From Candidatus Doudnabacteria bacterium (GTDB taxonomy: Bacteria > Patescibacteriota > Doudnabacteria > UBA920), in the NCBI GenBank assembly GCA_963768175.1, contig CAVYGQ010000002.1:7270-71269 (forward strand): 64,000 nt of DNA, in the 5' to 3' direction. Below the pieces are notes generated by a model that saw nothing but the letters and a program-made list of their open reading frames with translations, searched no databases and was not told where the DNA came from. The position numbers were made by a program, and so were the translations under genes. Shown piece by piece: positions 3,315 to 64,000 of this stretch. The first letter of the stretch is position 1. Each line of letters starts with the position of its first letter.

Positions 3315-3384
3315 GTTCACCCAGTTAAATAATCCAGCCGCAGGCTGGATTCCCGCTTCGCGGGATTTAACAGGGTAAAAGTGT
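3315..3384. repeat. structured palindromic element family A, copy 1 (outer stem ACCCAGTTAAAT/ATTTAACAGGGT enclosing two small hairpins)
   Basis: Outer 12-bp inverted repeat plus inner hairpins CCAGCCGCAGGCTGG and CCCGCTTCGCGGG. Related copies at 3454 and 55196. Confidence 0.7.
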
Positions 3385-3453: not shown

Positions 3454-3523
3454 GTTCACCCTGTTAAATCTTCCCGACAAAGTCGGGAAGGCCGCAAAGC
3501 GGCATTTAACAGGGTAAAGGTGA
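3454..3523. repeat. structured palindromic element family A, copy 2
   Basis: Same outer stem ACCCTGTTAAAT/ATTTAACAGGGT. Different inner hairpins CTTCCCGACAAAGTCGGGAAG and GCCGCAAAGCGGC. Confidence 0.7.
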
Positions 3524-28248: not shown

Positions 28249-28323
28249 TGGTGCGTGTGGCAGGGATCGAACCTGCGACCCCGTCATTATCAGTGACGTG
28301 CTCTACCACTGAGCTACACACGC
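28249..28323 (-). tRNA. tRNA-Ile(GAU), CCA encoded
   Basis: Reverse complement is GCGTGTGTAGCTCAGTGGTAGAGCACGTCACTGATAATGACGGGGTCGCAGGTTCGATCCCTGCCACACGCACCA. Anticodon loop CTGATAA. Confidence 0.85.
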
Positions 28324-33773: not shown

Positions 33774-33893
33774 TAAAATTTTTCGTTTTAGCATTAATTT
33801 TTTAATGACAAAAATTAAAAAAATAATAAAAATGACAGAAATATTACTGCAGTCAATTTTTGCTCAATTTTGTCATTTTTGTCAATAACCCTT

Positions 33894-36258: not shown

Positions 36259-36539
36259 GTAGCAATGACAAAATTGACAAAAATTAAATAAATGACAAAA
36301 ATAATGTACCCAATAATTTTTTAATTTTTGTTCATTCTTGTCATTCTTGTCATTATCCCTTATGTGTATAACTCTCCTTGCCTATTAATAAAAAAATGGT
36401 ATAATATAATTAACTTAAATATTATCCTTTAGTTTCTAAAAAACGCCGTGACTTAAGTTGGAGGGGACAAAGAGCTTAAGCTGGTTTTTTCCTAGCTTAA
36501 AGTTCGGCGGGGAATTAAAGGGTTATTTTTAGAATAAGA

Positions 36540-37086: not shown

Positions 37087-37485
37087 GTGAATTTTCATTT
37101 TTCAAACAAAATTAAAATTTTATTAAGCAGCCTCATAGCGGCTGTTGTTTTATTATTGGCGGTTGTTGGAGGAGTAAATAACGGCAAAAAAATCGCTCAA
37201 GCAAAAATTCTTATCCAAACTTCCAAGAGCGCGGCCTCGGCCCTACAATATTTTTATCAGGATCAAAACCGCTACCCCACGGCCACGGAGTTTGAAAATC
37301 AAAACCTTATGTTAAGCTATTTCAGTAATTTCCCTTTACCCAATTATCCATCCTCGGCCTGCAGCCAGAGCTTTGTTTATAAAAGAGCGGATCCGGCGGC
37401 TTTTAGCTTAAGTTTTTGTTTGCCGGTTGCTTCCAGTGGTTATCAGGCGGGATGGAACAATATTAATGGCTCGATGGGGAAATGA
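37087..37485 (+). CDS. hypothetical membrane-anchored protein with C-terminal Cys pair (pilin-like fold possible)
   Basis: N-terminal TM without a GFTLIE motif. Cys pair ACSQ...FCLP. Confidence 0.3.
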   Translation: MNFHFSNKIKILLSSLIAAVVLLLAVVGGVNNGKKIAQAKILIQTSKSAASALQYFYQDQNRYPTATEFENQNLMLSYFSNFPLPNYPSSACSQSFVYKRADPAAFSLSFCLPVASSGYQAGWNNINGSMGK

Positions 37486-37563
37486 CAAAAAGGACAAAAA
37501 CGACGTAAATGACTAAAATGTGACTGCGGTTTATTTTTGTCATTTTTATTATTTATTTAATTT

Positions 37564-39561
37564 TTGTCATTACTTTTTATGTTCAACCTAGAAAAATTCC
37601 GCCTCCCTTACCGCGAAGACTTAACATTCAGTTGCTTGAGTTTTTTAGTTTTTATTGTTCCTTTGGCTTTTTTTTTGCTGACTAACGAGAATTACGAAAC
37701 CGCAAAGTTTGTCCTGTTTTTAATTTTAGCCGGCTCTAGCTTAGTGGCATTTTTAAAACGGCGGGAATTGAATGAAATTTCGGTAAAATTCCAGCAGCCG
37801 TTTTTTTATTTGCTCGCCGCGATGCTTTTTTGGGCTGTTTTGTCGGCCGTTTTCTCCAGTGATGTTTTATACAGCATCTTTGGTTTTTACTACCGTTTTA
37901 CCGACGGTTTGGTTTTTTATTTTTGCCTGGCGACATTTTTAATTTTATTGGTCAATGTTTTGGACAAAGGCCGGTTGGTGTTTTTGCTGCAAATTTTAGT
38001 TTTTGATGCTTTAATTGTGGCTATTTTAGGATGCCTGCAAAGCGTCGGCATCACCTATTATGGGGGGATAACTTCCAGCGGCTTAATGCTCGGGCCCAGT
38101 TTGTTGGGCAACCCGGATTTTAGCGCCATGTTTTTGGCGGCAGTATTGCCTTTTGCCCTGGTTTTTTTTAGCAGCGCCGGGAAATTTTCCGCCAAAGTTT
38201 ATTATGGTTTGTGCGTTTTTATTATTATTTTGGCAAGCCTGGCATTCGCCAGCAGGGGGGCGCTTTTGGCCATAGCCGTAAGTCTAACTTTGGCCTTGGC
38301 CGGATTTTTGATTTTTCATCTGCAAAAAAAATTTTTTTTCGGTTTGTTGGCGATTTTGCTAGTCGGGTTGGTATTGGGCGGGGGTTTTTTAAAAGCTGTC
38401 AGGCCCGGAGCAGTAAGCACCATTTACCAATCCGTAGACGCCAACACCGTTGCCAGATTAGCGGCGTGGCAGATTTCCCTGCAGGGAATTGGCCAGCATC
38501 CGTTGTTGGGAAGCGGACTGGGAACTTATGTTTTATTTTTTGAGCACAATCGTCCGCAAAGCATGGCTACGCTAGTGGGGGTTTTTGACGATCCCCACAA
38601 TTTATTTCTACGCATGGCGGTAACCGAAGGCATCCCTTTTGTTTTAATTTTTTTCGGATTGCTCGTAGCGGCCGGCACCAGCGCGGCTAAACAACTAAAG
38701 CAGGAAAAGGACCTGTTAACTTTAGGATTTTTGGTAAGCCTGGTTGCTTGGTGCGTCGGAGTAAGCTTTAACCCGGTTCCTATCCCTATGTTTATGCTTT
38801 TGGCGGTAATACTTTCCGGACTGCTTGTGGGGCATACCGAAAGCAAAAATTTAAAGTTAAACGCAAAAATAAAATGGGCGGTTTATATTTTTGCCGGAAT
38901 TTTTATAGTTTTCGGCATTAGTTTGGCGACTTCGGAATATGTTTTTGGCTTTGCCAAAAGAGATTATCTTAATCAGGATTACGGCCAGGCTTACAACTTA
39001 AGCGTTTTGGCGGAAAAAATTAATCCAACCAACCGTTTGTATGAAATTTATCGGATAGGCGCTGAAATCGGCTTGAATAAAGACCCCCAGGGAATTGTCA
39101 AAGACATCAACCGTTTTACTCTTACCCATTCAAGCTATACGGGCACCTTTGTTGAGGCCAGTAATATGTATAATTTGCTTTATTCTTCTACTGGCGAGAA
39201 AATTTATTTATGGTCCGCCATAACCGAAATGGATATGGCTTTAAAAATAGATAAATTTTACGCCGAAAGATACGGCCAGGAAGCCTTATATTATTATGAG
39301 CTTAATGATTTAAACGCATCCAAATCCGCGGTGGTAAAAAATTTAAGTTTGGAGGACGATAATTTTGCCCCTTGGATTTTGCTGGCAAAAATTTATCAGT
39401 TGGAAGGCAATAAAGCCGCGACTGTGCAGGCGCTGTCCCGAGCCTTTAAGCTTAGGCCGGACATCCCCCAGATTGGCTATTACCTCTATTTGGCCAAAAC
39501 CCAAGCCGATATAAAAACTGTGCCGCTTCGGATTGCGCCCATGCCTCCGCATTTGGAATAG
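37564..39561 (+). CDS. O-antigen ligase (Wzy_C)-like polytopic membrane protein with C-terminal TPR repeats; candidate pilin O-glycosylation enzyme (PglL/PilO-type)
   Basis: About 12 TM helices, a large periplasmic loop, and TPR-like C-terminus (...LAKIYQLEGNKAATVQALSRAFKL...). Located directly after the pilin gene. Confidence 0.55.
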   Translation: MSLLFMFNLEKFRLPYREDLTFSCLSFLVFIVPLAFFLLTNENYETAKFVLFLILAGSSLVAFLKRRELNEISVKFQQPFFYLLAAMLFWAVLSAVFSSDVLYSIFGFYYRFTDGLVFYFCLATFLILLVNVLDKGRLVFLLQILVFDALIVAILGCLQSVGITYYGGITSSGLMLGPSLLGNPDFSAMFLAAVLPFALVFFSSAGKFSAKVYYGLCVFIIILASLAFASRGALLAIAVSLTLALAGFLIFHLQKKFFFGLLAILLVGLVLGGGFLKAVRPGAVSTIYQSVDANTVARLAAWQISLQGIGQHPLLGSGLGTYVLFFEHNRPQSMATLVGVFDDPHNLFLRMAVTEGIPFVLIFFGLLVAAGTSAAKQLKQEKDLLTLGFLVSLVAWCVGVSFNPVPIPMFMLLAVILSGLLVGHTESKNLKLNAKIKWAVYIFAGIFIVFGISLATSEYVFGFAKRDYLNQDYGQAYNLSVLAEKINPTNRLYEIYRIGAEIGLNKDPQGIVKDINRFTLTHSSYTGTFVEASNMYNLLYSSTGEKIYLWSAITEMDMALKIDKFYAERYGQEALYYYELNDLNASKSAVVKNLSLEDDNFAPWILLAKIYQLEGNKAATVQALSRAFKLRPDIPQIGYYLYLAKTQADIKTVPLRIAPMPPHLE

Positions 39562-40520: not shown

Positions 40521-40648
40521 AGGTATAATAAATAGGTAATGAACAAAAATGACAAAAATTAAAAAAATGAGCAAAAATTAAAAAATCCGGTATTTTCGCC
40601 GTTTTTGTGATTAAAACATCCCTTTTGAAATAAAATTTATCTCCAATA

Positions 40649-46143: not shown

Positions 46144-46437
46144 TGAACTGGGAGATTTTGAAAGAATTTTAGTTTATTTCTAAACGTTCAAGTTTATCAA
46201 GCACCAGTTTTTGATGTAAAGTAAAAAATCTGTTTGTCATGGTGGAAACTACTTTTTTAGAAAAGTCATAAAACTTTTCAAAAGGTGGTGCTGGATTTAT
46301 TTTACCATAATTTGCGCGATTTGGCGCTGTGGATAAACCCAGCACCACTTTTCGGCTTTGAAAAGTGGTGCTGGGTAAACCTCTTGTTATCAAAAGCATT
46401 CAAAAATGCTATAATAATAAGGTATTTAAGCAAATTT

Positions 46438-48496: not shown

Positions 48497-50113
48497 ATGA
48501 GATCGGAATCGGAAAATTTTTACCGTAATTTTAAAAGCGGGTTAAAGCGGTTTCTGTCCCGATTTGACATTGCTCTTATAGCCCTTTTGGCTTTTGGGCT
48601 GCGGATGGTGCATTTTTTAACCGCCAGTTACGGCGTGACCGGCGAGGTTTTCCGGGATATGACGATAATCTATAATTTTGTGTTTTTGCACCAATGGCCG
48701 CTGCTTGGACCCTCCTCTTCCCTGGGAGGTTTTTATTTTGGGGCGGCGTATTACTATCTTCTCACTCCTTTCGTGGTTATGTTTAACTTTGCCCCTTACG
48801 GGGCGACTTTTGCCAGCGTATTTTTTTCGACTTTGCAGGTAGTGGTTTTGTACTATTTGATAAGGTTATGGTTTAATAACCGCGCTTGGGCCGCTTTAGC
48901 CGCTTTGGCTTCGGCCATTTGCCTGTTTGACATCCAATTTGCCTATTATGCCTCCAACCCGAATTTTCTGCCTTTTTTTATTGTTTGCTTTTTTTATTTG
49001 CTCACCTTGGCCAAGCAGAAAAAATTCGCCTGGCCGTACGCTTTGCTTTTGGGTTTAGATATTGGCATTGTTACCCAACTGCACGCTACCGCCCTGCTTG
49101 CCGTACCGGCGATTTTAATTTTATTTTTATTAATCAGAAAAGCAAGAATCCCCCTAAAAAGCTTTTTTACTGGCTTTATGGCGATTGTTTTTACCTATTT
49201 GCCTTACTTGATTTACGAATTCCACCACCGCCTGCAAAATGCCAAGGGGATTGCGCATTTGGGCGAGGCAAGTTTTGGCTTAAGCATAAATTTTTTTTCG
49301 CTTCAGCGTCTTATAGAATTTTGGAGCAATCTGTTTTTAGTCCGCGTTGATTTTTTTAATGTCTACGATATTTATGGCTCGGCAGCCATAGTCTTGTTAG
49401 GTTTAACCATCCTATTGCTATTTGCTTCGTACTTTGGCTATAAACCGGCTTTTAAAATTTATCCAGCACCTTCCAAAATACCCCGCAACTCTACAACTGG
49501 GATGAGTAATTTAAAAGAGTCTTCTTGTGGAGCTGAATACTCCGTAGGAAGGTGCTGGATTTATTGGCAAGAGGTTGCAAACAGCGACGGCGCTTTGCTG
49601 ATAGTTCTTTGGTTAAGCGTGGCCTCGTTTATGTTTTTTTTCTTCCAAAAGCGGGCCCAGTTTTTTTATTTTTTAGTGCTATGGCCGCTGCCGGCTATTG
49701 TGTTTTCCTGGTTTTTGGTCCGGCTTTTGGCCGTTTCCAAAAAAGCGTTTATCCTGGTTTTGGTTTGGTTTATACTGCTTCAGGCCATGCAGTTAAGTTA
49801 TTTTTACGGGCATATAAGCAACAAAACTTTAAGCCATCGCAACGTTCAAAATTTACTGCAAAGCATTGCCACTCGGGCACAGGGCGAAGAGTTTTCTATT
49901 ATTAATAATTTTTTTGACCCGACGACCTTTCATTATTATTTGTTGTTAAACCATTTGGAGCAAACCCAGCAGCGGTATAACCCGGGTTATATTTTTTTGA
50001 TTTCCCCGAGCGACGGCTCCGGCAATGTTACGGTCAATATTCAAGAATATAATAAAATAAACCAAGAGCAGCTAAACGATTTAATGCTTACGGAATACCA
50101 AAAGAATAAATAA
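48497..50113 (+). CDS. polytopic membrane GT-C-like protein (paralog of 20415..21638) carrying an in-frame palindromic insertion
   Basis: Shares YYYLLTPFV...YYASNPNFLPFF with the paralog. About 14 TM helices. Confidence 0.45.
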   Translation: MRSESENFYRNFKSGLKRFLSRFDIALIALLAFGLRMVHFLTASYGVTGEVFRDMTIIYNFVFLHQWPLLGPSSSLGGFYFGAAYYYLLTPFVVMFNFAPYGATFASVFFSTLQVVVLYYLIRLWFNNRAWAALAALASAICLFDIQFAYYASNPNFLPFFIVCFFYLLTLAKQKKFAWPYALLLGLDIGIVTQLHATALLAVPAILILFLLIRKARIPLKSFFTGFMAIVFTYLPYLIYEFHHRLQNAKGIAHLGEASFGLSINFFSLQRLIEFWSNLFLVRVDFFNVYDIYGSAAIVLLGLTILLLFASYFGYKPAFKIYPAPSKIPRNSTTGMSNLKESSCGAEYSVGRCWIYWQEVANSDGALLIVLWLSVASFMFFFFQKRAQFFYFLVLWPLPAIVFSWFLVRLLAVSKKAFILVLVWFILLQAMQLSYFYGHISNKTLSHRNVQNLLQSIATRAQGEEFSIINNFFDPTTFHYYLLLNHLEQTQQRYNPGYIFLISPSDGSGNVTVNIQEYNKINQEQLNDLMLTEYQKNK

Positions 50114-51694
50114 AGAAAAAATTAAAGCGGGCCGGCGGCGACATCGTAAGGCGATGCGCGCGCGGGTCCGCTAACTTTTAATATTTAACCTTCAACTTCC
50201 AATACCTGTGGTTATCTTTGGGGAATACATTTTTTGAAAAACTAAAAGGCCGCTTATTTAAGGTTGAAATTTTTTATTAACCCTAAACCAGCCACTTCTT
50301 GACAAAGATATTAAAATCATCTAAAATAGTTAAGCAATAAGTTAATAAGAAACGACTATTATGAAAAAAGCTTTATTATTAAGGAAAACGCGGTTTATGT
50401 AAAACGGCCAATTTAAATTGTGCCTGACATAGCCGCGAAAGCGGTTTTTTTGTTGAAAAGCGACACCAACACACGAATACACGCGAATGACACGAATCAA
50501 AGACCTTTAAAATTATCGCCGTATACTTACTGCTCTGCGGATCTCAGCGTTCCAATTTTTTTGGGAACACAGGCTCGTAGAACCGATTTAGAGCAGTAGC
50601 TATATGATGGTAATTGTATTCCTCTGAACAGGCCAAGGGCCTGTGCCACAGCGACGATTATCGTCAGGTTCTTTAACAACTAAATAAAATAAGCCACCAC
50701 GTATAGAATCAGGCGTGGATGGCTTATGGGTAGAAACATTGTAAGAACTAACACACCAATTAACACAGATTGAAAACAAATGAACACGGATTCGTGTTAA
50801 TCCGTAATTATCGGTGTCAATTAGTGTGCAGAAAAGAACATTGTATCCTTACGCAGTTTGCATCAAACAGTTGTAAGATTTAGGATTAAAGATTTAAGTG
50901 GCTGCAGATTGCAGTTACTTACAATTTTAATCTTTCAACTCTCAACTAATTTGGTGGTCACAAATTGCTAGTTAATACTTGTCCCCGCGAAAGCGGGGAT
51001 CAATAGAATATAAAATATATAAGGGTATACGGTGGATGCCTAGGTAATATGAGCCGATGAAGGACGTGATAGCCTGCGAAAAGCCTCGGGGAGCTGGCAA
51101 TAAGCTTTGATCCGGGGATGTCCGAATGGGGAAACCCATGCACTGGAAGAGTGCATGCCTATATGCCGTGGGGTATGTAGTGCGGGAACCGTGCGAAGTG
51201 AAACATCTCAGTAGCACGTGGAAAATAAATCAATTTACGTCGCAAGACGTAAGAGAGATTCCGTCAGTAGTGGCGAGCGAAAGCGGAAGCATATATCAGA
51301 TAAATCGGAGAATCGGATGAATCGGAAAATCAGATCAAACATTATTGAAAAATGGTGTTTTGATCCGACTTCCGACTTCCGACATTCCGATTATTCTGGT
51401 ATTAGCCCAAACCTAATTAGTGTTTTCTAGATCCCCGCTTTCGCGGGGACAGGATTAAAGATTACAGTCGTTGCTAGTTAGGCGTAATAAGTTAGAGTTA
51501 TTGTCCCGCTGTAACGGGACAGGGAATTATGTTTGTTGTTTAGCAGAACACGCCTGGAACGGCGGACCAAAGAGGGTGATAGTCCCGTATCGCGAAAAAC
51601 CATGCAATTTCCTAACTTTTTCTTGAGTACAACCAGACACGAGAAATCTGGTTGGAAATCAGGTCGACTAAGATCTAAGGCTAAATACTCATAT

Positions 51695-51735
<41 letters not shown>

Positions 51736-52376
51736 CACCCCGGAAGGGGGATGAAATAGTATCTGAAACCGTATACTTACAAGGAGTGGAAGACCTTATT
51801 CTTTTTTCCGCAAGGTTAAGGGAATGGTTAACCGCGTGCCTATTGAAGAATGATCCAACGAGTTAATCTTTAGCAGCTTGATTAAGTCTTACCAAAGACG
51901 AAATCGCAGTGAAAGCGAGGATGAATAGTCCGTATTAGGATTTTGATCGGTCGATGACTTAGGTTATCGACCGCGACAATTTCCTAAATGTTGCTAGAGT
52001 TAGACCCGAAACCCGGTGAGCTACGCATGGCCAGGATGAACGTTATGTAAAAGTAACGGGAGGTCCGGACGCACTATTGCTGCAAAAATAGGCGATGAGC
52101 TGTGCGTAGGGGAGAAATTCCAATCGAACCGGGTGATAGCTGGTTCTCCTCGAAATAGCTTTAGGGCTAGCGTCGAGAGTTCCCTTGAGAGGTAGAGCAC
52201 TGAATGGAAACCTGCTGCGCAAGCGGTAGGCTCCAACCAAACTCCGAATTCTCAAGGTCAAGATCTCGGCAGTCAGTCCGTGAGGTCTAAGCTTCACGCG
52301 ACAAATGGAGAAGAATCCACACCACCGTCTAAGGCCCCCAAATCCTAGCTATAGTGCAAAGGATGTGGGGTTGCTC

Positions 52377-52413
<37 letters not shown>

Positions 52414-52511
52414 TAAAGAAAGCGTAACAGCTCACTGGTCAAGCGATCCCGCGCCGACAATATATAGGGGCTAAGCTAGGTGCCGAAGACGTGGATCAGC
52501 GCGTAGCGCTG

Positions 52512-52649
52512 GAAATCCGAAGCACGAAATCCGAAATACGAAACAATATTTAAATTCAAAAAAATAAATCCGAAATGTCGGGTTTAGATATTTGAATTTA
52601 TGATTTAGAATTTGTTTCGAATTTCGATATTCGAATTTCGAATTTGCAG
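52512..52649 (+). other. intervening sequence (IVS) in 23S helix 45: AT-rich hairpin built from TCCGAAAT/ATTTCGAA repeats
   Basis: Inserted between ...GATCAGCGCGTAGCGCTG and TGCTATGCGCTGG (E. coli position about 1170). Long imperfect inverted repeat GGAAATCCGAAGCACGAAATCCGAAATACGAAAC ... GTTTCGAATTTCGATATTCGAATTTCGAATTTGC. Confidence 0.5.
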
Positions 52650-53729
52650 TGCTATGCGCTGGTGGTAGAGGAGTGTTGTTTGCAGGTTGAAGCGGTATGC
52701 GTAAGCGGCCGTGGACAGCAAACAAGCAAGAATGTTGGAATAAGTAATATATATAGAGGTGAGAATCCTCTTCGCCGAATATCCAAGGGTTCCAGGGCAA
52801 CGATCGTCGTCCCTGGGTTAGTCGATCCTAAGAGCGGGCCCCAAGGGGTCCGTCCGATGGAAAATATGGTTGATATTCCATAACCGCCGTAACATTATCC
52901 AAGACGGGACACATCATGGTAGCGTTAGCGTTATCTGACTATTAGCGTTGTTGTACTTGTAGGATGGTTTTTGAGGCAAATCCCAAAGACCTATGCAATT
53001 ATTTCTTACCTCGCAAGAGATGGAAGTAAACGTTGTAATTTCGAGAGTACAAAGAAACCTGGCAACGGGAATTAGCGCAAACCAAGGTGTCAAGAAAAGC
53101 GTCGTGGTTAGGTGCTAGGGTGATCGTACCGTAAACCGACACAGGTGGATGGGGAGAGAATCCCAAGGCGTCCGGAACAATGTTCGTTAAGGAACTCGGC
53201 AAAAAAGCAGGTGTACCTTAGGTATATACCTTGACCTTTTATATGCTGGGTAATGAGAAATTGGAGAAGATAATTCTCCATCAGGAAAGTGGATACCAAA
53301 CAGCCGCACTTATCATGCAGCTGGGAAGGGCTTGACCGATAATCAAGTTTCGGCCTCTGGCCGAGTCCACCTAACAAAGGAGGGAATTCCAGTGTGTGCA
53401 TCCATGGCACAGCTCCGTGCCGCTACTTCATCCTAAAGAGGGTGAAAGCAACTCCGGTCATCGGGGCTGCCTCTTTCCATAGTAGCTGTACACACTGCCC
53501 TCCTTTGGATAATCATCTAATTTTGATTATCCTCATTACCCAGCATATTAAAAGGCCCGCAGCAAAAGACCTCTCCCGACTGTTTACCAAAAACTTAGGT
53601 CCGTGCTAAAGCGCAAGCTGATGTATACGGGCTGATGCCTGGCCAGTGTCAGAAGGTTAAATCCCTTGGCGCAAGCCGAGGGGCCAAGCCCTGATGAACG
53701 CCGGCAGTAACTATAACTGTCCTATGGTA

Positions 53730-54137
53730 ACTGGAATTTATTCTTTTTGGGCGTCATTCTGAGGAGCGAAGCGACGAAGAATCTCAAAATGAGATCCTTC
53801 ACTTCGTTCAGGATGACGCCGATAAGAAGTTTGGCTGCCATAGTAAAATGTAACTATATCGGAAAAAACCTCTCTGAGAAAATTCCGAGGGAAGACTTTT
53901 GTGTCATCGCGAGTGCAGCCGAAGCGATCTTTAAAAGATTGCTTCGTCGGATGCACTCCTCGCAATGACACAGAGGAACCCGTAGAGACTACACGTTGCA
54001 CATCATTTTGGTGATGAAGATATAGTCCGGACTGCATAGCGATATGCAGAATGTGACAGAAATGATCACATTTGTCATTCTGAATTTATTTCAGAATCTA
54101 GATTCCCGCTTTCGCGGGAATGACAATAACAAATCAA
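53730..54137 (+). other. ORF-less group I intron in 23S at the E. coli 1923-equivalent site (between GGTCCTATGGTA and GCGAAATTCC)
   Basis: Exon junction matches CGGTCCTAAGGTA^GCGAAATTCCTTGTCGGG. Conserved R-like GTAGAGACTACACG and S-like GAAGATATAGTCCGG core elements. Peripheral stems carry family B palindromic repeats. Confidence 0.6.
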
Positions 54138-54692
54138 GCGAAATTCCTTGTCGCGTAAGTTGCGACCCGCACGAATGGCATAACGAGTAGAGGACTGTCT
54201 TAACGAACATTCCGATGAACTTACAGTGGCGGTAAAGATGCCGTCTACCCGCAGCAAGACGGAAAGACCCTATGAAGCTTTACTATAGCGTGTCATTGAA
54301 TTAATGCTTTTATTGTTTAGCCTAGGTGGGAGCCTTTGAAGCTTGGGCGCCAGCTCAAGTGGAGGCGACAGGTGAAATACCACTCTGTAAAAATATTAAT
54401 TCTAACCAATGTTTAACCTGCATTGGGACAGTGGCTCGTGGGTAGTTTAACTGGGGCGGTTGCCTCCTAAATGGTAACGGAGGCGTTTATTAAGGTAGGC
54501 TAGGTATGGATGGAAATCATACCGGTAGTGCAAACGCATAAGCCTGCTTGACTGCAAGGGCGGCGACCCGCGCAGGCACGAAAGTGGAAGTTAGTGATCC
54601 GATGCGTTCGAGTGGAAGACGCAAAGCCCAACGGATAAAAGTTACTCTAGGGATAACAGGCTGATCCTCTCCAAGAGTCCACATCGACGAGA

Positions 54693-54731
<39 letters not shown>

Positions 54732-54735
54732 GTGA

Positions 54736-54772
<37 letters not shown>

Positions 54773-55195
54773 TGGTACGCGAGCTGGGTTCAAAACGTCG
54801 TGAGACAGTTTGGTCCTTATCTGCTGTGGGTGTACGAAACTTGAGTAGTCGCTTCGCTAGTACGAGAGGACCGCGAAGCATAGACCTCTGGTGTACCCGT
54901 TGTCCTGTCAAGGGCATGGCGGGGTAGCTAGGTCTAGTTAAGATAAACGCTGAATGCATATAAGCGTGAAGCTGTCTACAAAACTAGGTTTCGTTTTTAG
55001 TCGCAAGACTAAAGAAAGGTTCGGGGAAGACTACCCCGTACAACTATTAGGTTTTAGATTAAAGTTGAAAGACTTAAGTAGCAATACTTAGATCCGTAAT
55101 CTTAAATCTTTAATCTGATATATAGGTTGCAGGTGTAAGCACAGTAATGTGTTCAGCCGAGCAATACTAATCAACCGAAAATTTTAAATTCTATT

Positions 55196-55257
55196 TTAAC
55201 CCTGTTAAATGCCGCTTTGCGGCAATTTGCTTTCGGCAAATTATTTAACAGGGTGAA
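55196..55257. repeat. structured palindromic element family A, copy 3 (in 23S-5S spacer)
   Basis: Outer stem ACCCTGTTAAAT/ATTTAACAGGGT. Inner hairpins GCCGCTTTGCGGC (the inverse of copy 2's GCCGCAAAGCGGC) and ATTTGCTTTCGGCAAAT. Confidence 0.7.
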
Positions 55258-55850: not shown

Positions 55851-56453
55851 ATGATTGCTACGATAGTTCTGATAATTTTTTTGGTTTTTGCCCTCGCTAT
55901 ATTGTTTGTTATAACTAGTGCTTTTTTGGGTTTTTTAATGACCCGTGTGCCGTTTGTCACTACTTACGCATCGGATGTGGAATTTTTTGTAAAAAAGCTC
56001 GGTCTTTCATCAAGCGACGTTTTTTATGACCTCGGCAGCGGGGACGGTAAAGTATGTTTTTTGGTCAATCAGTTAACAGGAGCAAAGTGTATTGGGTTTG
56101 AGTTGACTTGGTGGACATATCTTCTCGCAAAAATCAGATCAAAATTTAAAAATCAAAAATCAAAATTACAATTTAAAAACCACCCCGTCATTCGACGGGG
56201 TGCCCGGTCGAATGACGGGGCAGAGGTAAAGTTCGTTAACGGTAATTTTTTTAAATATTCCTGGAGCGAAGCCAACATTATTTATGGTTATCTTTTTCCG
56301 CCGCTTATGGGCAGAGTGGAAGAAAAATTTTTGACCGACTGCAAGCCCGGCAGCATTGCCGTTATTCGCGATTTCCCTTTTCCGCGCATGGCTTATACGG
56401 ATAAATTTTATTTGCCCAAAAAGCACGAGATTTATATTTACAAAAAAGTGTAG
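55851..56453 (+). CDS. class I SAM-dependent methyltransferase-like protein with N-terminal TM and an in-frame palindromic insertion
   Basis: Motif I DLGSGDGKV. Insertion KNHPVIRRGARSNDGAEV is encoded by the hairpin pair at 56180-56225. Confidence 0.55.
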   Translation: MIATIVLIIFLVFALAILFVITSAFLGFLMTRVPFVTTYASDVEFFVKKLGLSSSDVFYDLGSGDGKVCFLVNQLTGAKCIGFELTWWTYLLAKIRSKFKNQKSKLQFKNHPVIRRGARSNDGAEVKFVNGNFFKYSWSEANIIYGYLFPPLMGRVEEKFLTDCKPGSIAVIRDFPFPRMAYTDKFYLPKKHEIYIYKKV

Positions 56454-57514: not shown

Positions 57515-59356
57515 ATGTGTGGCATCGTTGGTTACATCGGTAAAAAACAAGCATTACCGATCCTGTTACAGGGATTGCGCGATTTAGAGTATCGCGGCTA
57601 TGACAGTGCGGGCATAGCCGTTTTGGACCCCTCGACTACGCTCGGGGCAGGCGGGAAAATTGACCGCATCCGTGAAGTCGGCAAAGTAGACATGCTGGCA
57701 AAAAAAATCGGGCAGGAAAAATTCGTCGGTACGCTCGGCATCGCCCATACCCGCTGGGCCACGCATGGCGGAGTAACCGAGCAAAACGCACATCCCCATG
57801 TGGTCGGCAAGGGCAAACTGGCTTTGGTGCATAATGGGATTATTGAAAATTACCGTGAAATTAAAAAACAGTTAAAAAACCAAAACCAGGAATCAGAAAC
57901 CGATTCGGAAATATTAGCCGAACTTATTTTTGAAAGCTATCAAGGCGATTTGGCTAAAGCCGTAAAGCAGGCACTGTTAAAGGTCCGTGGCACCTATGGC
58001 ATTGTAGTTATGCACGCGGACCATCCCAACCAACTTGTGGCCGCCCGTCTGGGCAGCCCTTTGGCTATTGGGATATCGGATGGTGAGTATTATATTGCTT
58101 CCGATGTTACCCCAATGCTGCCTTTTACCAAGCAGGTAACGTTTTTAGATGATGGTGAAATTGCTTCTATCAACGGAGAAGGCTTGAAGATTGTAAATCT
58201 ACGCGATGAAATTATCTACAAAACTATTACCCAAATAGATTGGGACCAGGCTAAGGCGCAAAAGGGCGGATTTGAAAATTTTATGCTTAAGGAAATTTTT
58301 GACCAGCCTACGGTGTTTGAAGACGCCATCCGCGGCCGGTTTAATGTTGATGAAGGTACAGCGGTTTTAGGCGGGCTTAATATGACACAGGAGCAGATGC
58401 GTGAAGTAAAGAGAGTTATGATCATTGCAGAGGGCACGGCACGACACGCCGGCCTTATTGCCAAGTATGCTTTTGAACGTTTAGCCAATTTGCCGACAGA
58501 GGTTGATTTTTCTTCGGAGTTTCGCTATCGCGACCCGATTGTCAACAAAAATACTTTGGTTTTTGTAATTTCTCAATCCGGCGAAACCGCGGATACGCTT
58601 ATGGCCGCGCGCGAAGCCAAACGAAAGGGCGCTTTTATCCGCGGGATAGTCAACGTGGTCGGCTCCACCATTGCGCGCGAGACTAAGGCCGGCACTTACA
58701 TCCACGCGGGTCCGGAGCTGGCCGTGGCATCCACCAAAGCCTTTACCAATATGGTGGCGGTTTTACTTTTATACGCGTTGCAGTTCGGGCGGATTAAGCA
58801 TACGTCTTTGGCTACCGGCCAAAGGCTTCTAGCTGCGCTTTTGGAAATTCCGGAAAAAATGAATGCGGTTTTAAAGCAGGCGGACCAAATTAAAAAAATT
58901 GCCGGCAAATATCAATCCTACGAAAACATTTTGTTTATGGGCCGCGGGATAAACTACCCGGTGGCGTTGGAAGGCGCGTTAAAATTAAAAGAGATCTCCT
59001 ATATCCATGCCGAAGGCTTTGCCGGCGGCGAGATGAAGCACGGGCCGCTGGCTTTGGTAAGCAAAGATGTGCCGATAGTTGCAGTTTTAAGCCGCGACCA
59101 GTTGTACGAAAAAATGAAGAGCAGCATCCAGGAAGTCCGCGCCCGGGGCGCCCGCACATTGATTATTGCCACGCAAGGAGACGAGGAAGCCAAAGAAGTA
59201 GCCGACGAGATTATTTTCGTGCCGGACACTATGGAATTATTGGAGCCGTTATTAAACACTATCCCGCTTCAATTATTTGCTTATTACATTGCCGTAGCTC
59301 TAGGCCGCGACGTTGACCGTCCCCGCAATTTGGCTAAGAGTGTGACGGTGGAATAG
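57515..59356 (+). CDS. glmS: glutamine--fructose-6-phosphate aminotransferase
   Basis: N-terminal MCGIVGY nucleophile, two SIS domains, C-terminal ...KSVTVE. Confidence 0.9.
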   Translation: MCGIVGYIGKKQALPILLQGLRDLEYRGYDSAGIAVLDPSTTLGAGGKIDRIREVGKVDMLAKKIGQEKFVGTLGIAHTRWATHGGVTEQNAHPHVVGKGKLALVHNGIIENYREIKKQLKNQNQESETDSEILAELIFESYQGDLAKAVKQALLKVRGTYGIVVMHADHPNQLVAARLGSPLAIGISDGEYYIASDVTPMLPFTKQVTFLDDGEIASINGEGLKIVNLRDEIIYKTITQIDWDQAKAQKGGFENFMLKEIFDQPTVFEDAIRGRFNVDEGTAVLGGLNMTQEQMREVKRVMIIAEGTARHAGLIAKYAFERLANLPTEVDFSSEFRYRDPIVNKNTLVFVISQSGETADTLMAAREAKRKGAFIRGIVNVVGSTIARETKAGTYIHAGPELAVASTKAFTNMVAVLLLYALQFGRIKHTSLATGQRLLAALLEIPEKMNAVLKQADQIKKIAGKYQSYENILFMGRGINYPVALEGALKLKEISYIHAEGFAGGEMKHGPLALVSKDVPIVAVLSRDQLYEKMKSSIQEVRARGARTLIIATQGDEEAKEVADEIIFVPDTMELLEPLLNTIPLQLFAYYIAVALGRDVDRPRNLAKSVTVE

Positions 59357-60013
59357 GATTGTCATTGCGAGCCCCGAAGGGGCGTGGCAATCTGTCAAGA
59401 AGAAAGATTGCTTCGTCGCTACGCTCCTCGCAATGACAATTTGTAGCGAGTCGATTTATCGGTTTTTGCCAGAAAAAAAGAACGGCGTCATCCTGAACGA
59501 AGTGAAGGATCTAGGTATGAGATTCCTCGCTCCGCTCGGAATGACGCCGGGCAGCCGTCAGACTTGAACCGACAAACTGCCCTAAATCAGGGTGAACCGT
59601 GTTATCTTGGTGGAGCGGATTCCGGGATGTTGGTTTCGTACTTGCACGTGACTTCACGTGTCTCGAAATTGCATTTGATTCTGAATGCCATCCCGGGGCG
59701 TAATTCAACGCCGCGAAATAGGGCATTAGTCGGGATTAAGGTAGACCCGTCAGAAAACGCAATGATGAGCTCCTCGTCTACCTTTTTTTCCTTTCTTCGG
59801 CTTTGACCGCCAGAGAAGACGTTTGCTTCCACCTTCTTCCCTCCTTTCGTGCGCCGGTTGCGCTTTGGGAATAGAACAGCTTATTTTAGCAGAGAGAGAG
59901 AGTTTTGTAAAGGCCATTTTATGTCGGCGTCATCCCAAGGAGTGCAGCCGACGAAGGATCTCAGCCAAGAGATTCTTCGTCCCTCAGATGCATTCGGGAC
60001 TCAGAATGACGCC
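59346..60013. repeat. cluster of palindromic elements (family B and the GTCATTGCGAG...CTCGCAATGAC subfamily) filling the glmS-acs spacer
   Basis: Inverted repeats at 59346-59435 (GTCATTGCGAGCCCCGAAGGGGCG...CTCGCAATGACAAT), 59479-59553 (GGCGTCATCCTGAACGAAGTGAAGGATC...GGAATGACGCCGG) and 59920-60013. Confidence 0.6.
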
Positions 60014-60026
60014 ATAAGAGAACAAT

Positions 60027-61931
60027 ATGCAACTATCAGAATTTAAAAAGATATATCAAGAATCCATCAAAGATCCCGAAAAGTTCTGGGAGAAAGTTGC
60101 ACGTGAGGAAATCGTCTGGTTTAAAAAGTGGGACAAGGTTTTTGAGTGGGATTATCCTAACTATAAATGGTTTGCGGGAGGGAAGCTGAACATTACCCAT
60201 AACTGTTTGGACAGGCATATTGCTTCCGGATTGGGCGATAAAATTGCGCTGATTTATTTAAACGAAAAATATGAGAGGATTGCGATAACTTATCAGGAAC
60301 TGCTTAATCAGGTCAGTAAGTTTGCCAATGGGTTAAAAAGTTTGGGTGTAAAAAAAGGTGACAAGGTGGTTTTGTATATGCCGCTGGTAATAGAGCAGGC
60401 GGTTGCGATGCTGGCTTGCGCCCGCATCGGCGCGGTGCATAGCGTGGTATTTGCGGGCTTTAGCGCCAACGCCTTGCGCGAAAGGGTGGAAGATTTACGG
60501 GCAAAAATTATTGTCACGGCAACCTGGACCCAGCGCCGCGGGGAAAAGAAATTATTGAAGCCCGCGGCTGAAGAGGCTATTAAAGGTTTGGATTTTGTAG
60601 AGCATCTGGTAGTTTTACAGAGATGGGCACCATCTCGCGGCGAGATGGTGCCCATCTCCGGCATTGAGAGGGATTTTTACCAACTGACAGAAAAGCAAAA
60701 CGATATTTGCGAGCCGGAAATAATGGATGCGGAAGACCCTTTGTTCGTGCTGTATACTTCCGGTTCCACCGGCAAACCTAAAGGCATCGTCCACAGTTGC
60801 GGCGGTTTTTTGGTTTACGCGCACCATACTTTAAAAACAGTTTTTGATATTCGGGAAAACGATATCTACCCCGTTAGAAGTCAGACGCCGAAGGCGTCTG
60901 CTGGCCTGCCAAAGGCAGGCCAGACTTCTAACGGGGTGTATTGGTGCACCGCGGACTTTGGCTGGATAACCGGCCACAGTTACGTGTTGTATGGGCCGCT
61001 GTCTAACGGTCTGACATCGCTTATGGTGGAAGGCGCGCCGGATTTTCCCGCTCCCGACCATTGGTATAAAATTATTGAACAGGAAAAAGTAAATATTTTT
61101 TATACCTCGCCAACGGCTTTAAGGATGCTTAGGAAATACGGCGAAGAATATTGCAAACTTCACGACTTATCCTCGTTAAAAATTTTGGGCACGGTCGGCG
61201 AGCCCATTAATCCCGAAGTCTGGCGATGGTATTTTAAATTTATCGGTAACGAACGCTGCCCGATTGTAGATACCTGGTGGCAAACGGAGACCGGCGGGCA
61301 TATGGTGGTGACTTTGCCGGGATTGCCGCAAAAACCCGGCAAAGCGGGGTTCCCCTTTTACGGCATAGATGCCGGCGTTGTCAACCAAAGCGGGCAAGAG
61401 TTGCCGATTAACGAAAAAGGCTTTTTAGTCGTCAAAAAACCCTGGCCCGGGGCTTTGCGCGGCTGCTGGAATAATCCCGAGAGGTTTAATCAATATTGGA
61501 GTGAGTTTCCAGGCGTTTTTTTTACCGGAGACTTTGCCATAAAAGATGAAGACGGTTATATCCAAATTTTGGGGCGCAGCGACGACGTCATTAACGTATC
61601 AGGGCATCGCATTGGCACCGCGGAAGTGGAAAATGTTTTGGTGGCACACGTTGCGGTTGCCGAGGCCGCGGTTATTGCCAAACCCGATGAAATTAAAGGC
61701 GAGCGGCTTAAAGCTTTTGTGGTGTTAAAGACAGAGATTGTCGGCGATGAAGTTTTGAAGTCAAATATCCAAAAGTTTATTAAAGCGGAAATTGCCTCGT
61801 TCGCCGTTCCGGAGGAAATAGAATTTGTTTCTAGCCTTCCTAAAACCCGCAGCGGCAAAATTATGCGCCGCGTGCTTAAAGCCAAAGAACTGGGGCAGAG
61901 CGAAGGCGACCTGACAACTTTGGAAGACTAA
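60027..61931 (+). CDS. acs: acetyl-CoA synthetase (AMP-forming) carrying a 69-nt in-frame palindromic insertion
   Basis: YTSGSTGKPKG, ...YWCTAD(F/V)GWITGHSY..., C-terminal SGKIMRR. The insertion PVRSQTPKASAGLPKAGQTSNGV interrupts the conserved DIY-WCTADVGW block. Confidence 0.9.
   Translation: MQLSEFKKIYQESIKDPEKFWEKVAREEIVWFKKWDKVFEWDYPNYKWFAGGKLNITHNCLDRHIASGLGDKIALIYLNEKYERIAITYQELLNQVSKFANGLKSLGVKKGDKVVLYMPLVIEQAVAMLACARIGAVHSVVFAGFSANALRERVEDLRAKIIVTATWTQRRGEKKLLKPAAEEAIKGLDFVEHLVVLQRWAPSRGEMVPISGIERDFYQLTEKQNDICEPEIMDAEDPLFVLYTSGSTGKPKGIVHSCGGFLVYAHHTLKTVFDIRENDIYPVRSQTPKASAGLPKAGQTSNGVYWCTADFGWITGHSYVLYGPLSNGLTSLMVEGAPDFPAPDHWYKIIEQEKVNIFYTSPTALRMLRKYGEEYCKLHDLSSLKILGTVGEPINPEVWRWYFKFIGNERCPIVDTWWQTETGGHMVVTLPGLPQKPGKAGFPFYGIDAGVVNQSGQELPINEKGFLVVKKPWPGALRGCWNNPERFNQYWSEFPGVFFTGDFAIKDEDGYIQILGRSDDVINVSGHRIGTAEVENVLVAHVAVAEAAVIAKPDEIKGERLKAFVVLKTEIVGDEVLKSNIQKFIKAEIASFAVPEEIEFVSSLPKTRSGKIMRRVLKAKELGQSEGDLTTLED
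60869..60936 (+). repeat. perfect nested palindrome (14-bp outer stem CCCCGTTAGAAGTC/GACTTCTAACGGGG enclosing two hairpins) inserted in-frame in acs
   Basis: Inner hairpins AGACGCC-GAA-GGCGTCT and CTGGCCTGCC-AAA-GGCAGGCCAG. Total 69 nt, which is 23 codons. Confidence 0.8.
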
Positions 61932-61941: not shown

Positions 61942-63201
61942 ATGAAGGCATTAATTTTTGACAAAAGCAAAACTGATTGGGAAACATCACGGGGGTTTGA
62001 GTTGGCGGATATTCCCGAGCCGGTTTTGGACGAAAAGAAAAATCCCGCCGATGCCGATTATGTGGTTATGAAAGTACATTACGCCGGAGTGTGCGGCACT
62101 GACAAGGGCATTTGGAACCGGCAGGCTTTTAAGGATGCGATTTTGGATAGCATCGATGCGGAATCATTTCAACCTCTCTCGTCCCGACTTTCGTCGGGAC
62201 ACTCTCCCCATGTCTTGGGGAGAGAAATAAGGAAAGACTATCGAATTATCGGCCATGAATTTTTCGGTGAAGTAACCCAAGTCGGATCGGCCGTGAAGAA
62301 TATTAAGTCGGGGGATTTTGTGGCTTGCGAATCCCATGTAGTTTGCAATAAGTGTTATCAATGCTTGCATGGACAAAAAAATGTCTGTACCAACGAAAAG
62401 ATTTTGGGGATTTCCGTTGACGGCGGTTTTGCCGAGTATGCCAAGGTACCGGCGCAGGTAGTCTGGAAAACTGACACCGGGAAAATTCGTCCGGAAGTTG
62501 CCGCCATGCAGGAGCCATTTGGCAACGCGGTACATGCCGCCTCTAAAGTTGATTTAAAAGGTAAAACCGTGGCGATATTCGGGCTTGGCCCAATTGGCAT
62601 GTTTTTAACCATTATCGCGCGCGGTTTGAACGCCGCCTCCATTATCGGCGTTGAGCCAAATCCTATAGCTGGGGATATGGCAAAAAAGCTGGGGATTGAT
62701 TATGTTATTCCACTGAAAAATATCATCCCCCAGCCCCCTCTTAAAATAAGAGGGGGTGCCGAAGGCGGGGGTGATATAAAATCATACGCCCATAATACGG
62801 TAGTTGTTGATGAAATAAGAAAGATAACCAGCGGTCTGGGCGTTGACGTGGCGTTTGAGATGGCCGGGTTCAATAATTCAGTCAACAACGCCATTGCCTC
62901 GGTCAGGCGCGGCGGAGAAGTGATTTTGTTCGGCCTCAAAAACGGCGATTTTGTATTGGAAGATTACAATCGTCTGGTTATGAAGGGTGTAACCATGCAC
63001 TGCGTGGCTGGCCGGCAAATTTGGGAGACCTGGGAAACCACCCGCCGTTTGATGGAAGATGTCGCCAACGGTGTGCAGGAAAAACTATTCAACGTAATTT
63101 TAGACCGCGGCCACGGGACAATTTTGCCTATTTTAGAGTATAATAAAGAAAAGTTTGAAGAAATGATGGTTAAACATCCGAAATTTTTAATACAGTTTTA
63201 A
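61942..63201 (+). CDS. tdh: L-threonine 3-dehydrogenase (Zn-dependent MDR family) with two in-frame palindromic insertions
   Basis: CGTDxxIW...GHEFFGEV, catalytic and structural Zn Cys ligands (C..C..C...C), GLGPIG Rossmann motif. Insertions at about 62160-62232 and 62722-62790. Confidence 0.8.
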   Translation: MKALIFDKSKTDWETSRGFELADIPEPVLDEKKNPADADYVVMKVHYAGVCGTDKGIWNRQAFKDAILDSIDAESFQPLSSRLSSGHSPHVLGREIRKDYRIIGHEFFGEVTQVGSAVKNIKSGDFVACESHVVCNKCYQCLHGQKNVCTNEKILGISVDGGFAEYAKVPAQVVWKTDTGKIRPEVAAMQEPFGNAVHAASKVDLKGKTVAIFGLGPIGMFLTIIARGLNAASIIGVEPNPIAGDMAKKLGIDYVIPLKNIIPQPPLKIRGGAEGGGDIKSYAHNTVVVDEIRKITSGLGVDVAFEMAGFNNSVNNAIASVRRGGEVILFGLKNGDFVLEDYNRLVMKGVTMHCVAGRQIWETWETTRRLMEDVANGVQEKLFNVILDRGHGTILPILEYNKEKFEEMMVKHPKFLIQF

Positions 63202-63321: not shown

Positions 63322-64000
63322 ATGTATCAAAACTATCAGCAACAATTCGCAGACGAACTTAAGGAAATCAAAGATGCCGGGATGTGGAAAGATGTCGGGG
63401 TCTTGGAAGGCAAGCAGGGGACAGAAGTAATGATCAAAAATGACAAAGACGACGGAAATGGCAAAAATAAGGGAACAAAACTTCTCAATTTCTGCGCGAA
63501 TAACTATCTGGGTTTGGCATCATCGGAAGAACTTGCGCAAGCAGCCATTGACGGTGTAAAAAAATACGGCTTTGGAGAGGCATCGGTTAGGTTTATTGTC
63601 GGTACATCCACTATCCATAAAGACTTGGAAAAAGAAATCAGCAAATTTTTTGGCACCGAGGACGCCATTACTTATACTTCCTGTTTTGACGCCAACACCG
63701 GTTTGTTTGAAACGATTTTAAAAGAGGGGGATGCGGTATTTTCGGACGAGTTGAATCACGCGTCAATCATTGACGGCATCAGGCTATGCAAGGCGGAACG
63801 GTTTAGGTATAAAAATTCCGATATTGCGGATTTGGAAAATCAACTCAAGGCCGCCGGAGACCGCAGACGTAAGTTGATAGCGACTGATGGGGTGTTTTCT
63901 ATGGATGGTATTACCGCCAAAGTTAAAAAGATTTGCGATTTGGCGGAGAAGTATGGGGCGTTGGTTATGGTGGACGACAGCCATGCCAGCGGGGTATTGG
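63322..64000 (+). CDS. kbl: 2-amino-3-ketobutyrate CoA ligase (glycine C-acetyltransferase), 3'-truncated by window end
   Basis: LNFCANNYLGLA, ...SCFDANTGLFE..., DELNHASIIDG, ATDGVFSMDG, MVDDSHA. An extra NDKDDGNGKN segment corresponds to a partial copy of the pil-cluster repeat. Confidence 0.8.
   Translation, partial: MYQNYQQQFADELKEIKDAGMWKDVGVLEGKQGTEVMIKNDKDDGNGKNKGTKLLNFCANNYLGLASSEELAQAAIDGVKKYGFGEASVRFIVGTSTIHKDLEKEISKFFGTEDAITYTSCFDANTGLFETILKEGDAVFSDELNHASIIDGIRLCKAERFRYKNSDIADLENQLKAAGDRRRKLIATDGVFSMDGITAKVKKICDLAEKYGALVMVDDSHASGVL

Follow-up and report, generated by a model that had tools for sequence, protein, structure and literature searches.

We analyzed a 64,000-nt stretch of DNA from Candidatus Doudnabacteria bacterium (GTDB lineage Bacteria; Patescibacteriota; Doudnabacteria; UBA920; GenBank assembly GCA_963768175.1, contig CAVYGQ010000002.1, positions 7,270 to 71,269 of the forward strand), hereafter the window, and found that its acetate--CoA ligase (ACS) gene acs carries an in-frame, perfect T-shaped palindrome, in which one outer stem encloses two inner hairpins in a three-way junction. 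This palindrome is probably a copy of a dispersed, non-autonomous selfish palindrome family that acts at the DNA level in Parcubacteria-type bacteria of the candidate phyla radiation (CPR) and is filtered for coding compatibility. Selfish palindromes in core enzymes are unexpected in CPR bacteria because the genomes of these organisms are tiny and streamlined.

The core of the acs element comprises three perfect helices, namely an outer stem of 14 bp (ACCCCGTTAGAAGT/ACTTCTAACGGGGT) and inner hairpins of 8 bp (CAGACGCC-GAA-GGCGTCTG) and 10 bp (CTGGCCTGCC-AAA-GGCAGGCCAG), which abut directly and leave 0 unpaired bases at the junction. A first-pass annotation made from the sequence alone had reported such a palindrome at 60869-60936; the structure was confirmed, with its bounds corrected to 60868-60937. 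The RNA folding suggested there as a check gave a minimum free energy of -60.2 kcal/mol for the core compared to -25.5 +/- 3.4 kcal/mol for dinucleotide shuffles (z = -10.2, 0/200). Removal of T + core + G (60867-60938) from acs restores GAT ATC TAT TGG, read as DIYW, and the insert is bracketed by two tyrosine codons, TAC at 60867-60869 and TAT at 60939-60941. The coordinates of this element and of the other features of the window are collected in the table.

Comparison with orthologs showed that the 24 extra residues are specific to the present protein. The spacing D-x-x-W (4 residues from D to W) was found in 118 of the 119 closest ACS database proteins, and a spacing of 28 only in the present ACS. 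The nearest relatives, 78-81% identical, lack the insert, which is also absent between DI and YWCTAD from 14 orthologs encoded in genomes and 18 close CPR proteins. In the HMMER comparison with solved ACS structures, each match consisted of two blocks, the first ending with ..DIY and the second restarting with (D/G)(I/V)YWCTAD, and the insert was left unaligned. The claim of the first-pass annotation that a conserved block of acs is split without loss of the reading frame thus held, and its core inference, that the extra residues are insertions and not ancestral loops, is supported.

An AlphaFold model of ACS, built from the 119-sequence alignment, had a mean predicted local distance difference test score (pLDDT) of 87.1, with values under 50 confined to residues 202-207, 245-249, and 283-301; it superseded a model from 18 sequences that was too poor (pLDDT 58.6). 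Two of the three low-scoring segments (202-207 and 283-301) are encoded by palindromes and the third (245-249) is not, and the model keeps the strand VYWC (304-307) that flanks the insert. Low pLDDT is expected in the acs insert because it has no homologues; the model supports, without proving, the predicted placement of the insert in a tolerated surface loop. A second, unrelated perfect hairpin in acs, which the first-pass annotation had overlooked, has no further copy within the window, and its loop is a hotspot of insertion in CPR ACS proteins. This loop (approximately residues 196-220) is usually 20-22 aa long and reaches 68 aa in CPR orthologs, where its peptides are unrelated to each other and palindrome-encoded (VIAEPKVASEGAAIS.., VIPSERSESRNP.., AVAARHGAPSKGGMPRHA).

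Table. Features of the window discussed in the text (positions are those of the 64,000-nt window; z, folding score)
Feature	Position	Strand	Details
T-shaped three-way-junction palindrome core in acs	60868..60937	.	outer stem of 14 bp, inner hairpins of 8 bp and 10 bp
Host gene acs (acetate--CoA ligase)	60027..61931	+	634 aa, reading frame intact; 8RPK match, E = 1e-186
Net acs insertion	60867..60938	+	72 nt = 24 codons, residues 281-304, YPVRSQTPKASAGLPKAGQTSNGV
Second, unrelated perfect hairpin in acs	60620..60658	.	18 bp, RWAPSRGEMVPIS; z = -7.4
Family copy, intergenic, 5' of RRM-type RNA-binding protein gene	3319..3376	.	73.8 bits
Intergenic family copy, 139 nt downstream of the one at 3319	3458..3515	.	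70.8 bits
Family copy in 23S-5S spacer, 9 nt past 23S rRNA 3' end	55199..55254	.	65.5 bits
tdh insert 1	62164..62232	+	aa 75-97, SFQPLSSRLSSGHSPHVLGREIR, two adjacent GC-rich hairpins; z = -4.6
tdh insert 2	62719..62784	+	aa 260-281, NIIPQPPLKIRGGAEGGGDIKS, imperfect three-way junction of C5/G5 modules; z = -5.9
Methyltransferase insert	56178..56225	+	NHPVIRRGARSNDGAE, GTCAT..ATGAC type; z = -5.8
GT-C/PMT_2 gene insertion	49457..49564	+	102 nt = 34 aa, classical miniature inverted-repeat transposable element
kbl insert	63430..63471	+	MIKNDKDDGNGKNK, AT-rich AATGACAAAAA repeat copy, non-palindromic; z = +0.5
Three GTCAT..ATGAC doublets, spacer 5' of acs	59361-59437, 59487-59545, 59929-60010	.	
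Three GTCAT..ATGAC doublets in expanded 23S rRNA gene	53753-53817, 53903-53969, 54074-54124	.	

Copies of the same palindrome type were recovered elsewhere in the window and in many metagenomes. A detector of perfect junctions found 4 copies in the window versus none in 10 Markov shuffles. The outer stem ACCCYGTTA..TAACRGGGT is common to the four, and a regular expression search returned the same 4 sites. A covariance model that drew on 16 metagenome copies and zero window sequences recovered all 4 window copies (73.8, 70.8, 65.5, and 37.4 bits), the lowest score being that of the acs element (E = 2.7e-8). The acs copy is a divergent member of the family, with the terminus variant GTTAGAAGT in place of the family terminus ACCCYGTTAAAT, and a second copy with the GTTAGAA variant was found in the OFOR-beta gene of metagenome locus L188. 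JGI/ENA contigs were sampled with the exact-terminus pattern ACCCNGTTAAAT N20-50 ATTTAACNGGGT, which yielded at least 120 loci, chiefly on groundwater and sediment contigs; the three-way-junction type was essentially absent from 1.14 Mb of ACS-ortholog loci. The taxonomy of the metagenome contigs was taken from the named homologues of a few host proteins, and the closest relatives of ACS and of the host protein PpsA belong to Paceibacterota, Doudnabacteria, Nealsonbacteria, or Parcubacteria. The family is apparently undescribed: Rfam 15 returned nothing at the elements at gathering thresholds over the whole window and no relevant match in E-value mode to E = 1 (3200-3600 and 59300-61000), and a non-exhaustive literature search found no account that pairs CPR bacteria with transposable elements of the miniature inverted-repeat type (MITEs).

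The two intergenic copies near the start of the window lie in the leader of the RRM gene (start at approximately 3551). They have equal termini and alike flanks (AGTTC..AAAGGTG.AGGCT) and wholly different inner hairpins, and the pair could have arisen by duplication in tandem followed by turnover of the hairpins, or the element could have a regulatory role there.

The elements are about 45-75 nt long, with measured lengths of 44-74 nt, and have conserved 12-bp terminal inverted repeats (TIRs), ACCCYGTTAAAT..ATTTAACRGGGT, with conservation reaching 3 bases outward, to TTY before ACCC and RAA after GGGT. The inner pair of the family is non-complementary (C..A, or T..G on the opposite strand), and outer-stem position 5 is mismatched in 26% of copies. 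The acs flanks TCT / GTA match the TTY..RAA context at 4 of 6 positions; the mismatches fall on the codons ATC and TAT, which are conserved, a pattern that target-derived TT/AA would produce. Two clean hairpins, most commonly of 5 + 9 bp with triloops, make up 85 of the 126 interiors, and 97.7% of the cells in a model-guided alignment are paired. All 14 inner-helix pairs vary on both sides (covariation score 0.43 vs 0.10 in shuffled alignments, 0/500), with 0-8 one-sided changes per pair vs 15-92 double-sided changes, and G.U states are nearly absent. A single polarity of the element was rejected, since hairpin order, purine/pyrimidine orientation of the loops, and flank asymmetry were mutually uncorrelated (44 concordant vs 41 discordant for hairpin order and loop orientation). 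This strict Watson-Crick symmetry together with the lack of polarity suggests a DNA palindrome rather than a strand-specific RNA.

The copies inside genes bear a mark of coding constraint. With a genic copy defined as one lying at least 30 codons deep in an open frame, here of 150-844 aa, 20 of the 124 metagenome copies (~16%, one in six) were genic. Their hosts include PGK, PpsA/PPDK, YqeY, DeoC, MurG, RmlD, MurD, UvrC, the beta subunit of a TPP enzyme (OFOR), and RsmH, as identified by Pfam, and RsmI, L23, AMMECR1, and ComEC, as recognized by eye. Eighteen of the 20 are read in one phase, xAC CCY GTT AAA .. TTT AAC RGG GTx, which encodes [Y/H]PVKS-x(8-14)-FNRV, and the acs copy is read in the same phase (TAC CCC GTT AGA .. 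AAC GGG GTG; YPVRS..SNGV). Only this phase is usable because phase 2 meets TAA in the 5' arm and phase 0 is blocked too, by a TGA/TAA stop formed from the T of GGGT and the RAA flank. A length of 1 mod 3 was found for 18/20 genic copies vs 35/105 others (Fisher p = 2.4e-6), so that the length bias proposed as a check in the first-pass annotation is present. The behaviour of Rickettsia palindromic elements (RPEs) that it had recognized in this lineage, one unrelated to Rickettsia, is likewise seen in the many in-frame copies in housekeeping genes. The peptides SQTPK, ASAGLPK, AGQTSNGVYWCTADFGW, and AGQTSNGVYWCTADFGWITGHSYVLYGPLSNGLTSLMVEGAPDFPAPDHWYK are candidate markers for read-through of the acs insert.

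Filled and empty sites were compared for several hosts. The PGK copy corresponds to an exact 20-aa gap in the alignment with T. maritima PGK (1VPE). Among PpsA orthologs that are 70-88% identical, one site occurs in a filled state (KKYIY-PVKS..FNRVN-AK), an empty state exactly 20 aa shorter (KKYIY-AK; including Nealsonbacteria- and Parcubacteria-named proteins), and a partly decayed state (YPPKFRETKLG..RVY), and other genomes have family copies at further PpsA positions. The orthologous YqeY inserts of loci L123 and L174 differ by compensated stem changes. The UvrC gene of locus L187 (631-2067) holds three family copies, at 803-860, at 1220-1277, and, as a short one-hairpin form, at approximately 1677, all of them in the PVKS..FNRV frame. 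Interiors that are 94-97% identical were found at loci with unrelated flanks, as in the pairs L109 (PpsA)/L133, L101/L124, and L133/L201 (the latter an AMMECR1 gene), and the flanks of true orthologous pairs are in common.

Based on these patterns, we propose that an enzyme acting in trans would place copies at new sites at the DNA level without target-site duplication, each insertion adding core + 2 nt. Selection would then keep those genic copies that have a length of 1 mod 3, the single stop-free phase, and a permissive loop. Expressed along with the host gene, the insert would form a disordered loop of approximately 16-24 residues in the translated protein, with no host function implied, and the stems would stay perfect because a hairpin or cruciform intermediate is selected for or because templated correction restores them. 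The other inserts of the window would have the same general origin, from different kinds of elements. Direct repeats flank the family copies no more often than expected by chance for 2 nt (9/125 copies, ~11 by chance) and in 1/125 for 3 nt; these flank statistics and the frame arithmetic of the PGK copy ruled out a TA or TTAA target-site duplication for the three-way-junction family.

Several points weigh against this proposal. The junction is ambiguous by 1-3 nt, with T + core + G fitting acs and PGK and core + GA fitting PpsA better. No transposase or recurrent gene was found beside the copies, whose neighbours are diverse housekeeping genes, and no long or autonomous element bounded by half-sites was found in ~0.9 Mb. 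The metagenome sample was ascertained by exact termini, so the conservation of the termini is overstated. The selfish and mobile nature of the elements is deduced from the distribution of the copies, and translation of the genic inserts from frame statistics, not proteomics. Finally, the inner hairpins remain perfect although their sequences have diverged. The latter fact is not explained by the neutral decay of a dead transposon and implies either selection on structure or a copy-correcting mechanism.

An IS1595-family DDE transposase ORF (zinc ribbon + ISXO2-like domain) is encoded in the window at 10375-11166 on the minus strand; it was rejected as a parent of the family, as no TIRs were detectable within 200-300 nt of it. 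On another contig (L094, 3575-3770), an entire tRNA-Val(TAC) gene lies within the family outer stem CCCCGTTAAAT..ATTTAACGGGG, and stem and gene together, as one unit, split a different tRNA gene at its anticodon loop. ARAGORN sees this outer tRNA only after manual deletion of the unit, its identity varies with the junction chosen, and ARAGORN run with introns on the metagenome loci reported no intron-containing tRNA.

A bolder version of the proposal holds that the T-shaped palindromes spread, and retain their perfect stems, through a mechanism that depends on hairpins or cruciforms and is unlike that of insertion sequences (IS), MITEs, or repetitive extragenic palindromic (REP) elements, perhaps with excision at the RNA level in some contexts, as L094 may hint. 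The idea draws on the flip-flop reminiscent of inverted terminal repeats (ITRs), on insertion between TT and AA without duplication, and on the capacity to carry a tRNA as cargo, and we regard it as speculative and rather unlikely. If true, the palindromes would be bacterial mobile elements or mini-introns of a new class and, in addition, a source of new protein loops across the CPR.

Among the rival explanations, the element as a functional structured RNA, recurring in UTRs, rRNA spacers, and mRNAs through its use by the cell (for example, as a signal for processing or for an RNase III-type enzyme, or as a three-way junction that binds a protein), survives best, with a small probability slightly below that of the preceding idea. 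The very strong covariation would fit it, as would the copies located 5' of the RRM-protein gene and at 9 nt beyond the end of 23S rRNA and the L094 outer stem around a tRNA-Val gene within another tRNA gene. However, such an RNA is at odds with the lack of strand polarity and near absence of G.U pairs described above, with genic copies that lie at non-homologous positions of unrelated genes under a frame constraint, with the diversity of the neighbour genes, and with the lack of Rfam matches.

On-the-spot origin by template switching or snap-back during replication in permissive loops is improbable for the acs element. Perfect arms, the presence in the window of single-copy hairpins (the second acs hairpin and tdh 62181-62224), and the same loops being struck in different genomes would all be accounted for by such events, but they leave unexplained why the 12-bp termini recur at 120 or more unrelated loci, why near-identical interiors stand amid unrelated flanks, and why the interior of the acs element is without similarity to the adjoining host sequence; moreover, the GT-C insert has TIRs and a duplication typical of transposition. 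Local template switching is a more plausible origin of those hairpins for which the window holds no further copy.

We consider it equally improbable that the insert is removed at the RNA level, either as a mini-intron or by a programmed bypass from TAC to TAT, so that ACS would be made without the 24 residues. A skip between the two tyrosine codons would yield exactly DIYWCTAD, and the outer tRNA gene of L094 is recognizable only once the element is deleted. Removal or bypass would nevertheless lift the frame constraint, yet the genic copies are stop-free and show the phase and length bias given above; in addition, the putative take-off site is not followed by a stop or frameshift, and intron-type tRNAs were not reported by ARAGORN. 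An assembly artefact, for which only the general risk of metagenome-assembled genomes speaks, and an ancestral lineage-specific loop were tested and rejected as practically impossible, because an independent Logan assembly of run ERR10755942 (L081) was 100% identical over 3,664 nt including the acs element, family copies occur on at least 120 independent contigs, and the insert is missing from nearly all ACS relatives, the closest included.

The selfish palindrome family thus remains the preferred reading for acs, and the first-pass annotation had extended a single hairpin family to six sites in the window. A family stands for the acs element, whereas the six sites comprise at least four kinds; the tdh, methyltransferase, GT-C, and second acs hairpin inserts were rejected as degenerate three-way-junction members (covariance E > 0.04, the level of generic hairpins). 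The extra residues of tdh, the methyltransferase, and the GT-C protein are insertions, as had been claimed, but their sizes are not confined to the 16-23 residues given there, the GT-C insert adding 34 aa; the acs insert adds 24 aa. Both tdh inserts are insertions relative to PDB homologues and most orthologs. Insert 1, with its hairpin at 62181-62224, has no further copy within the window, and insert 2 has a 15/15-nt block and the hairpin CCCCCTCTTA..TAAGAGGGGG in common with the intergenic region 4535-4735. The methyltransferase insert has the form CCCC-GTCAT-TCGAC..GTCGA-ATGAC-GGGG, read as GTC ATT = VI .. AAT GAC = ND, and is lacking in the ortholog from L003.

The GT-C insert is an ordinary MITE, with a length that by chance is 3n. 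The element spans 96 nt (49463-49558) with 12-bp TIRs (CCAGCACCTTCC/GGAAGGTGCTGG) and a 6-bp direct duplication ATTTAT, is absent from the ortholog P0122 (72-77% identical), and has relatives in spacers at 30911-31008, 28361-28458, and 46287-46374. The kbl insert had been described as a partial palindromic copy of a repeat from the pil cluster. Its origin from that repeat was upheld (94% over 34 nt to 33248-33280 in the pilin-region spacers; read as IKNDKDDGN), and its palindromic nature was not, the sequence being an AT-rich direct repeat devoid of secondary structure. At the same site, a longer version is present in the ortholog from L005 and nothing in that from L007. Repeats of the AATGACAAAAA type were also observed in spacers of the 31-40 kb cluster at 33248-33340, 33802-33888, 36272-36336, 37481-37571, and 40536-40556.

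The GTCAT..ATGAC doublets are a second nested-palindrome family of this genome, and literature on motifs of this type gave primer matches only. The 23S rRNA gene (51009-55190) is 4,182 nt long compared to 2,925 nt of the bacterial model; among the surplus are an insertion of 177 nt close to model position 278, small hairpins with perfect stems (for example, GTCCCGCTGTAACGGGAC), and the three GTCAT doublets. The doublets and hairpins within this gene indicate that palindromic elements colonize the rRNA gene besides protein genes. Between the palindromes 5' of acs, approximately 370 nt (59550-59920) are non-coding, with a fold of -31 kcal/mol at 59617-59696 and no Rfam match; the one weak match of the region, to the SAH riboswitch (22 bits, E = 0.22), coincides with a GTCAT palindrome and seems spurious.

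The loops that carry the tdh, methyltransferase, GT-C, kbl, and second acs hairpin inserts hold different nested palindromes in orthologs from other CPR genomes, including GTCAT doublets (VIAS..LLAMT/PRND), GTAG-tagged REP-like palindromes, and a 'PPLK.RGG' type, suggesting shared permissive sites that were repeatedly struck. The convergent tolerance that the first-pass annotation offered as an alternative is therefore observed in different CPR genomes. The TDH loops after SIDAE and DYVIPLK are insertion hotspots, like the ACS loop. In L005, a related Patescibacteria metagenome-assembled genome, GTAG-tagged REP-like palindromes (GTAGGGGAGGG..CCCTCCCCTAC) lie in frame in the methyltransferase and kbl genes (2749-2799 and 11107-11172), which places REP-type sequence in a genic context.

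Further features were observed elsewhere in the window. A match to the LOOT RNA (Rfam, 56.6 bits with a gathering threshold of 46.4) at 23561-23687 on the minus strand adjoins a PMT-type glycosyltransferase gene. A long imperfect GC-rich hairpin (24905-24984, -51.7 kcal/mol) lies in the spacer between ORFs ending at 24702 and starting at 25030 and has no further copy within the window. The tRNA-Ala and tRNA-Ile genes (27679-28323, minus strand) stand 23 kb away from the 23S/5S genes, which lie on the other strand, indicating that the rRNA operon is unlinked, and a 100-nt inverted-repeat element of the CCAGCACC type (28360-28459) adjoins tRNA-Ile.

The T-shaped family would represent a second, independent, and much more widespread 'RPE phenomenon', with conserved termini and variable, self-correcting hairpins. 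Because the same loops are struck repeatedly, the inserts offer a natural experiment on protein loops that tolerate insertions of approximately 20 residues. They would account for numerous unusual low-complexity segments and small 'hypothetical proteins' annotated in CPR genomes and should be masked in homology and structure work. The family also raises the mechanistic question of which enzyme inserts a T-shaped palindrome without duplication and how the stems are kept perfect.

Of the known systems, the RPE phenomenon is functionally the nearest. RPEs are ~100-150 bp long and confined to Rickettsia (PMC10969869). The likeness lies in repeated in-frame palindromes in unrelated housekeeping genes with a conserved tolerated peptide, and in additional intergenic and RNA-gene sites (PMC10969869). 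The present family differs in its length of ~45-75 nt, CPR host, and apparently unrelated sequence, and in forming a perfect three-way junction with conservation limited to the 12-bp termini and compensatory changes in the variable interior. MITEs such as Correia, ERIC, and Nezha are likewise short, non-autonomous, non-coding, and multi-copy, have TIRs, and occasionally lie in frame in genes. The GT-C insert, with its 12-bp TIRs and ATTTAT on both sides, is a textbook case. In contrast, the three-way-junction family has no target-site duplication, a parent IS was not found, and its interior consists of two maintained hairpins and not of a decayed transposase remnant.

REP elements are tied to RAYT transposases. 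No RAYT (TnpA_REP) was found among 10 window ORFs scanned or among recurrent neighbour genes. The family resembles REP, BIME, and REPIN sequences in its dispersed, non-coding, GC-rich inverted hairpin doublets that combine into larger hairpins. By definition, REPs lie outside genes, and they carry a GTAG or CGTC tag (PMC3733652), whereas the family termini ACCC..GGGT are untagged and about one in six copies lies deep in ORFs.

The A-B-B'-C-C'-A' geometry of the palindromes, with both hairpin orders occurring, resembles the 'flip/flop' of parvoviral ITRs. The ITRs of parvoviruses, including adeno-associated virus, are 125-145 nt long, form the ends of a linear single-stranded DNA genome, and prime its replication, whereas the present palindromes are interstitial chromosomal repeats. 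Integron attC sites have the order 5'-RYYYAAC .. GTTRRRY-3', extrahelical bases, and a context of cassettes and integrase. GTTAAAT and ATTTAAC of the family fit GTTRRRY and RYYYAAC, and a centre of variable sequence and conserved structure is common to both, but the family has no extrahelical bases, cassette arrays, or nearby integrase, and its copies lie inside ORFs. An attC identity was rejected, as the motif order is reversed (GTTAAAT .. ATTTAAC).

Hairpin repeats in coding sequence are also represented by the GC clusters and 'byp' elements of yeast mitochondria, the latter being skipped by the ribosome. Further hairpin invaders of coding sequence occur in Nematomorpha mitochondria (PMC6649704) and as repetitive hairpin elements of sponges (PMC2800124), and the PARCEL repeats of Mollicutes are hairpin-forming repeats tolerated in coding sequence (PMC2996958). 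The palindromes described here differ from all of these in genome and sequence, and their frame statistics indicate read-through rather than skipping of the byp type.

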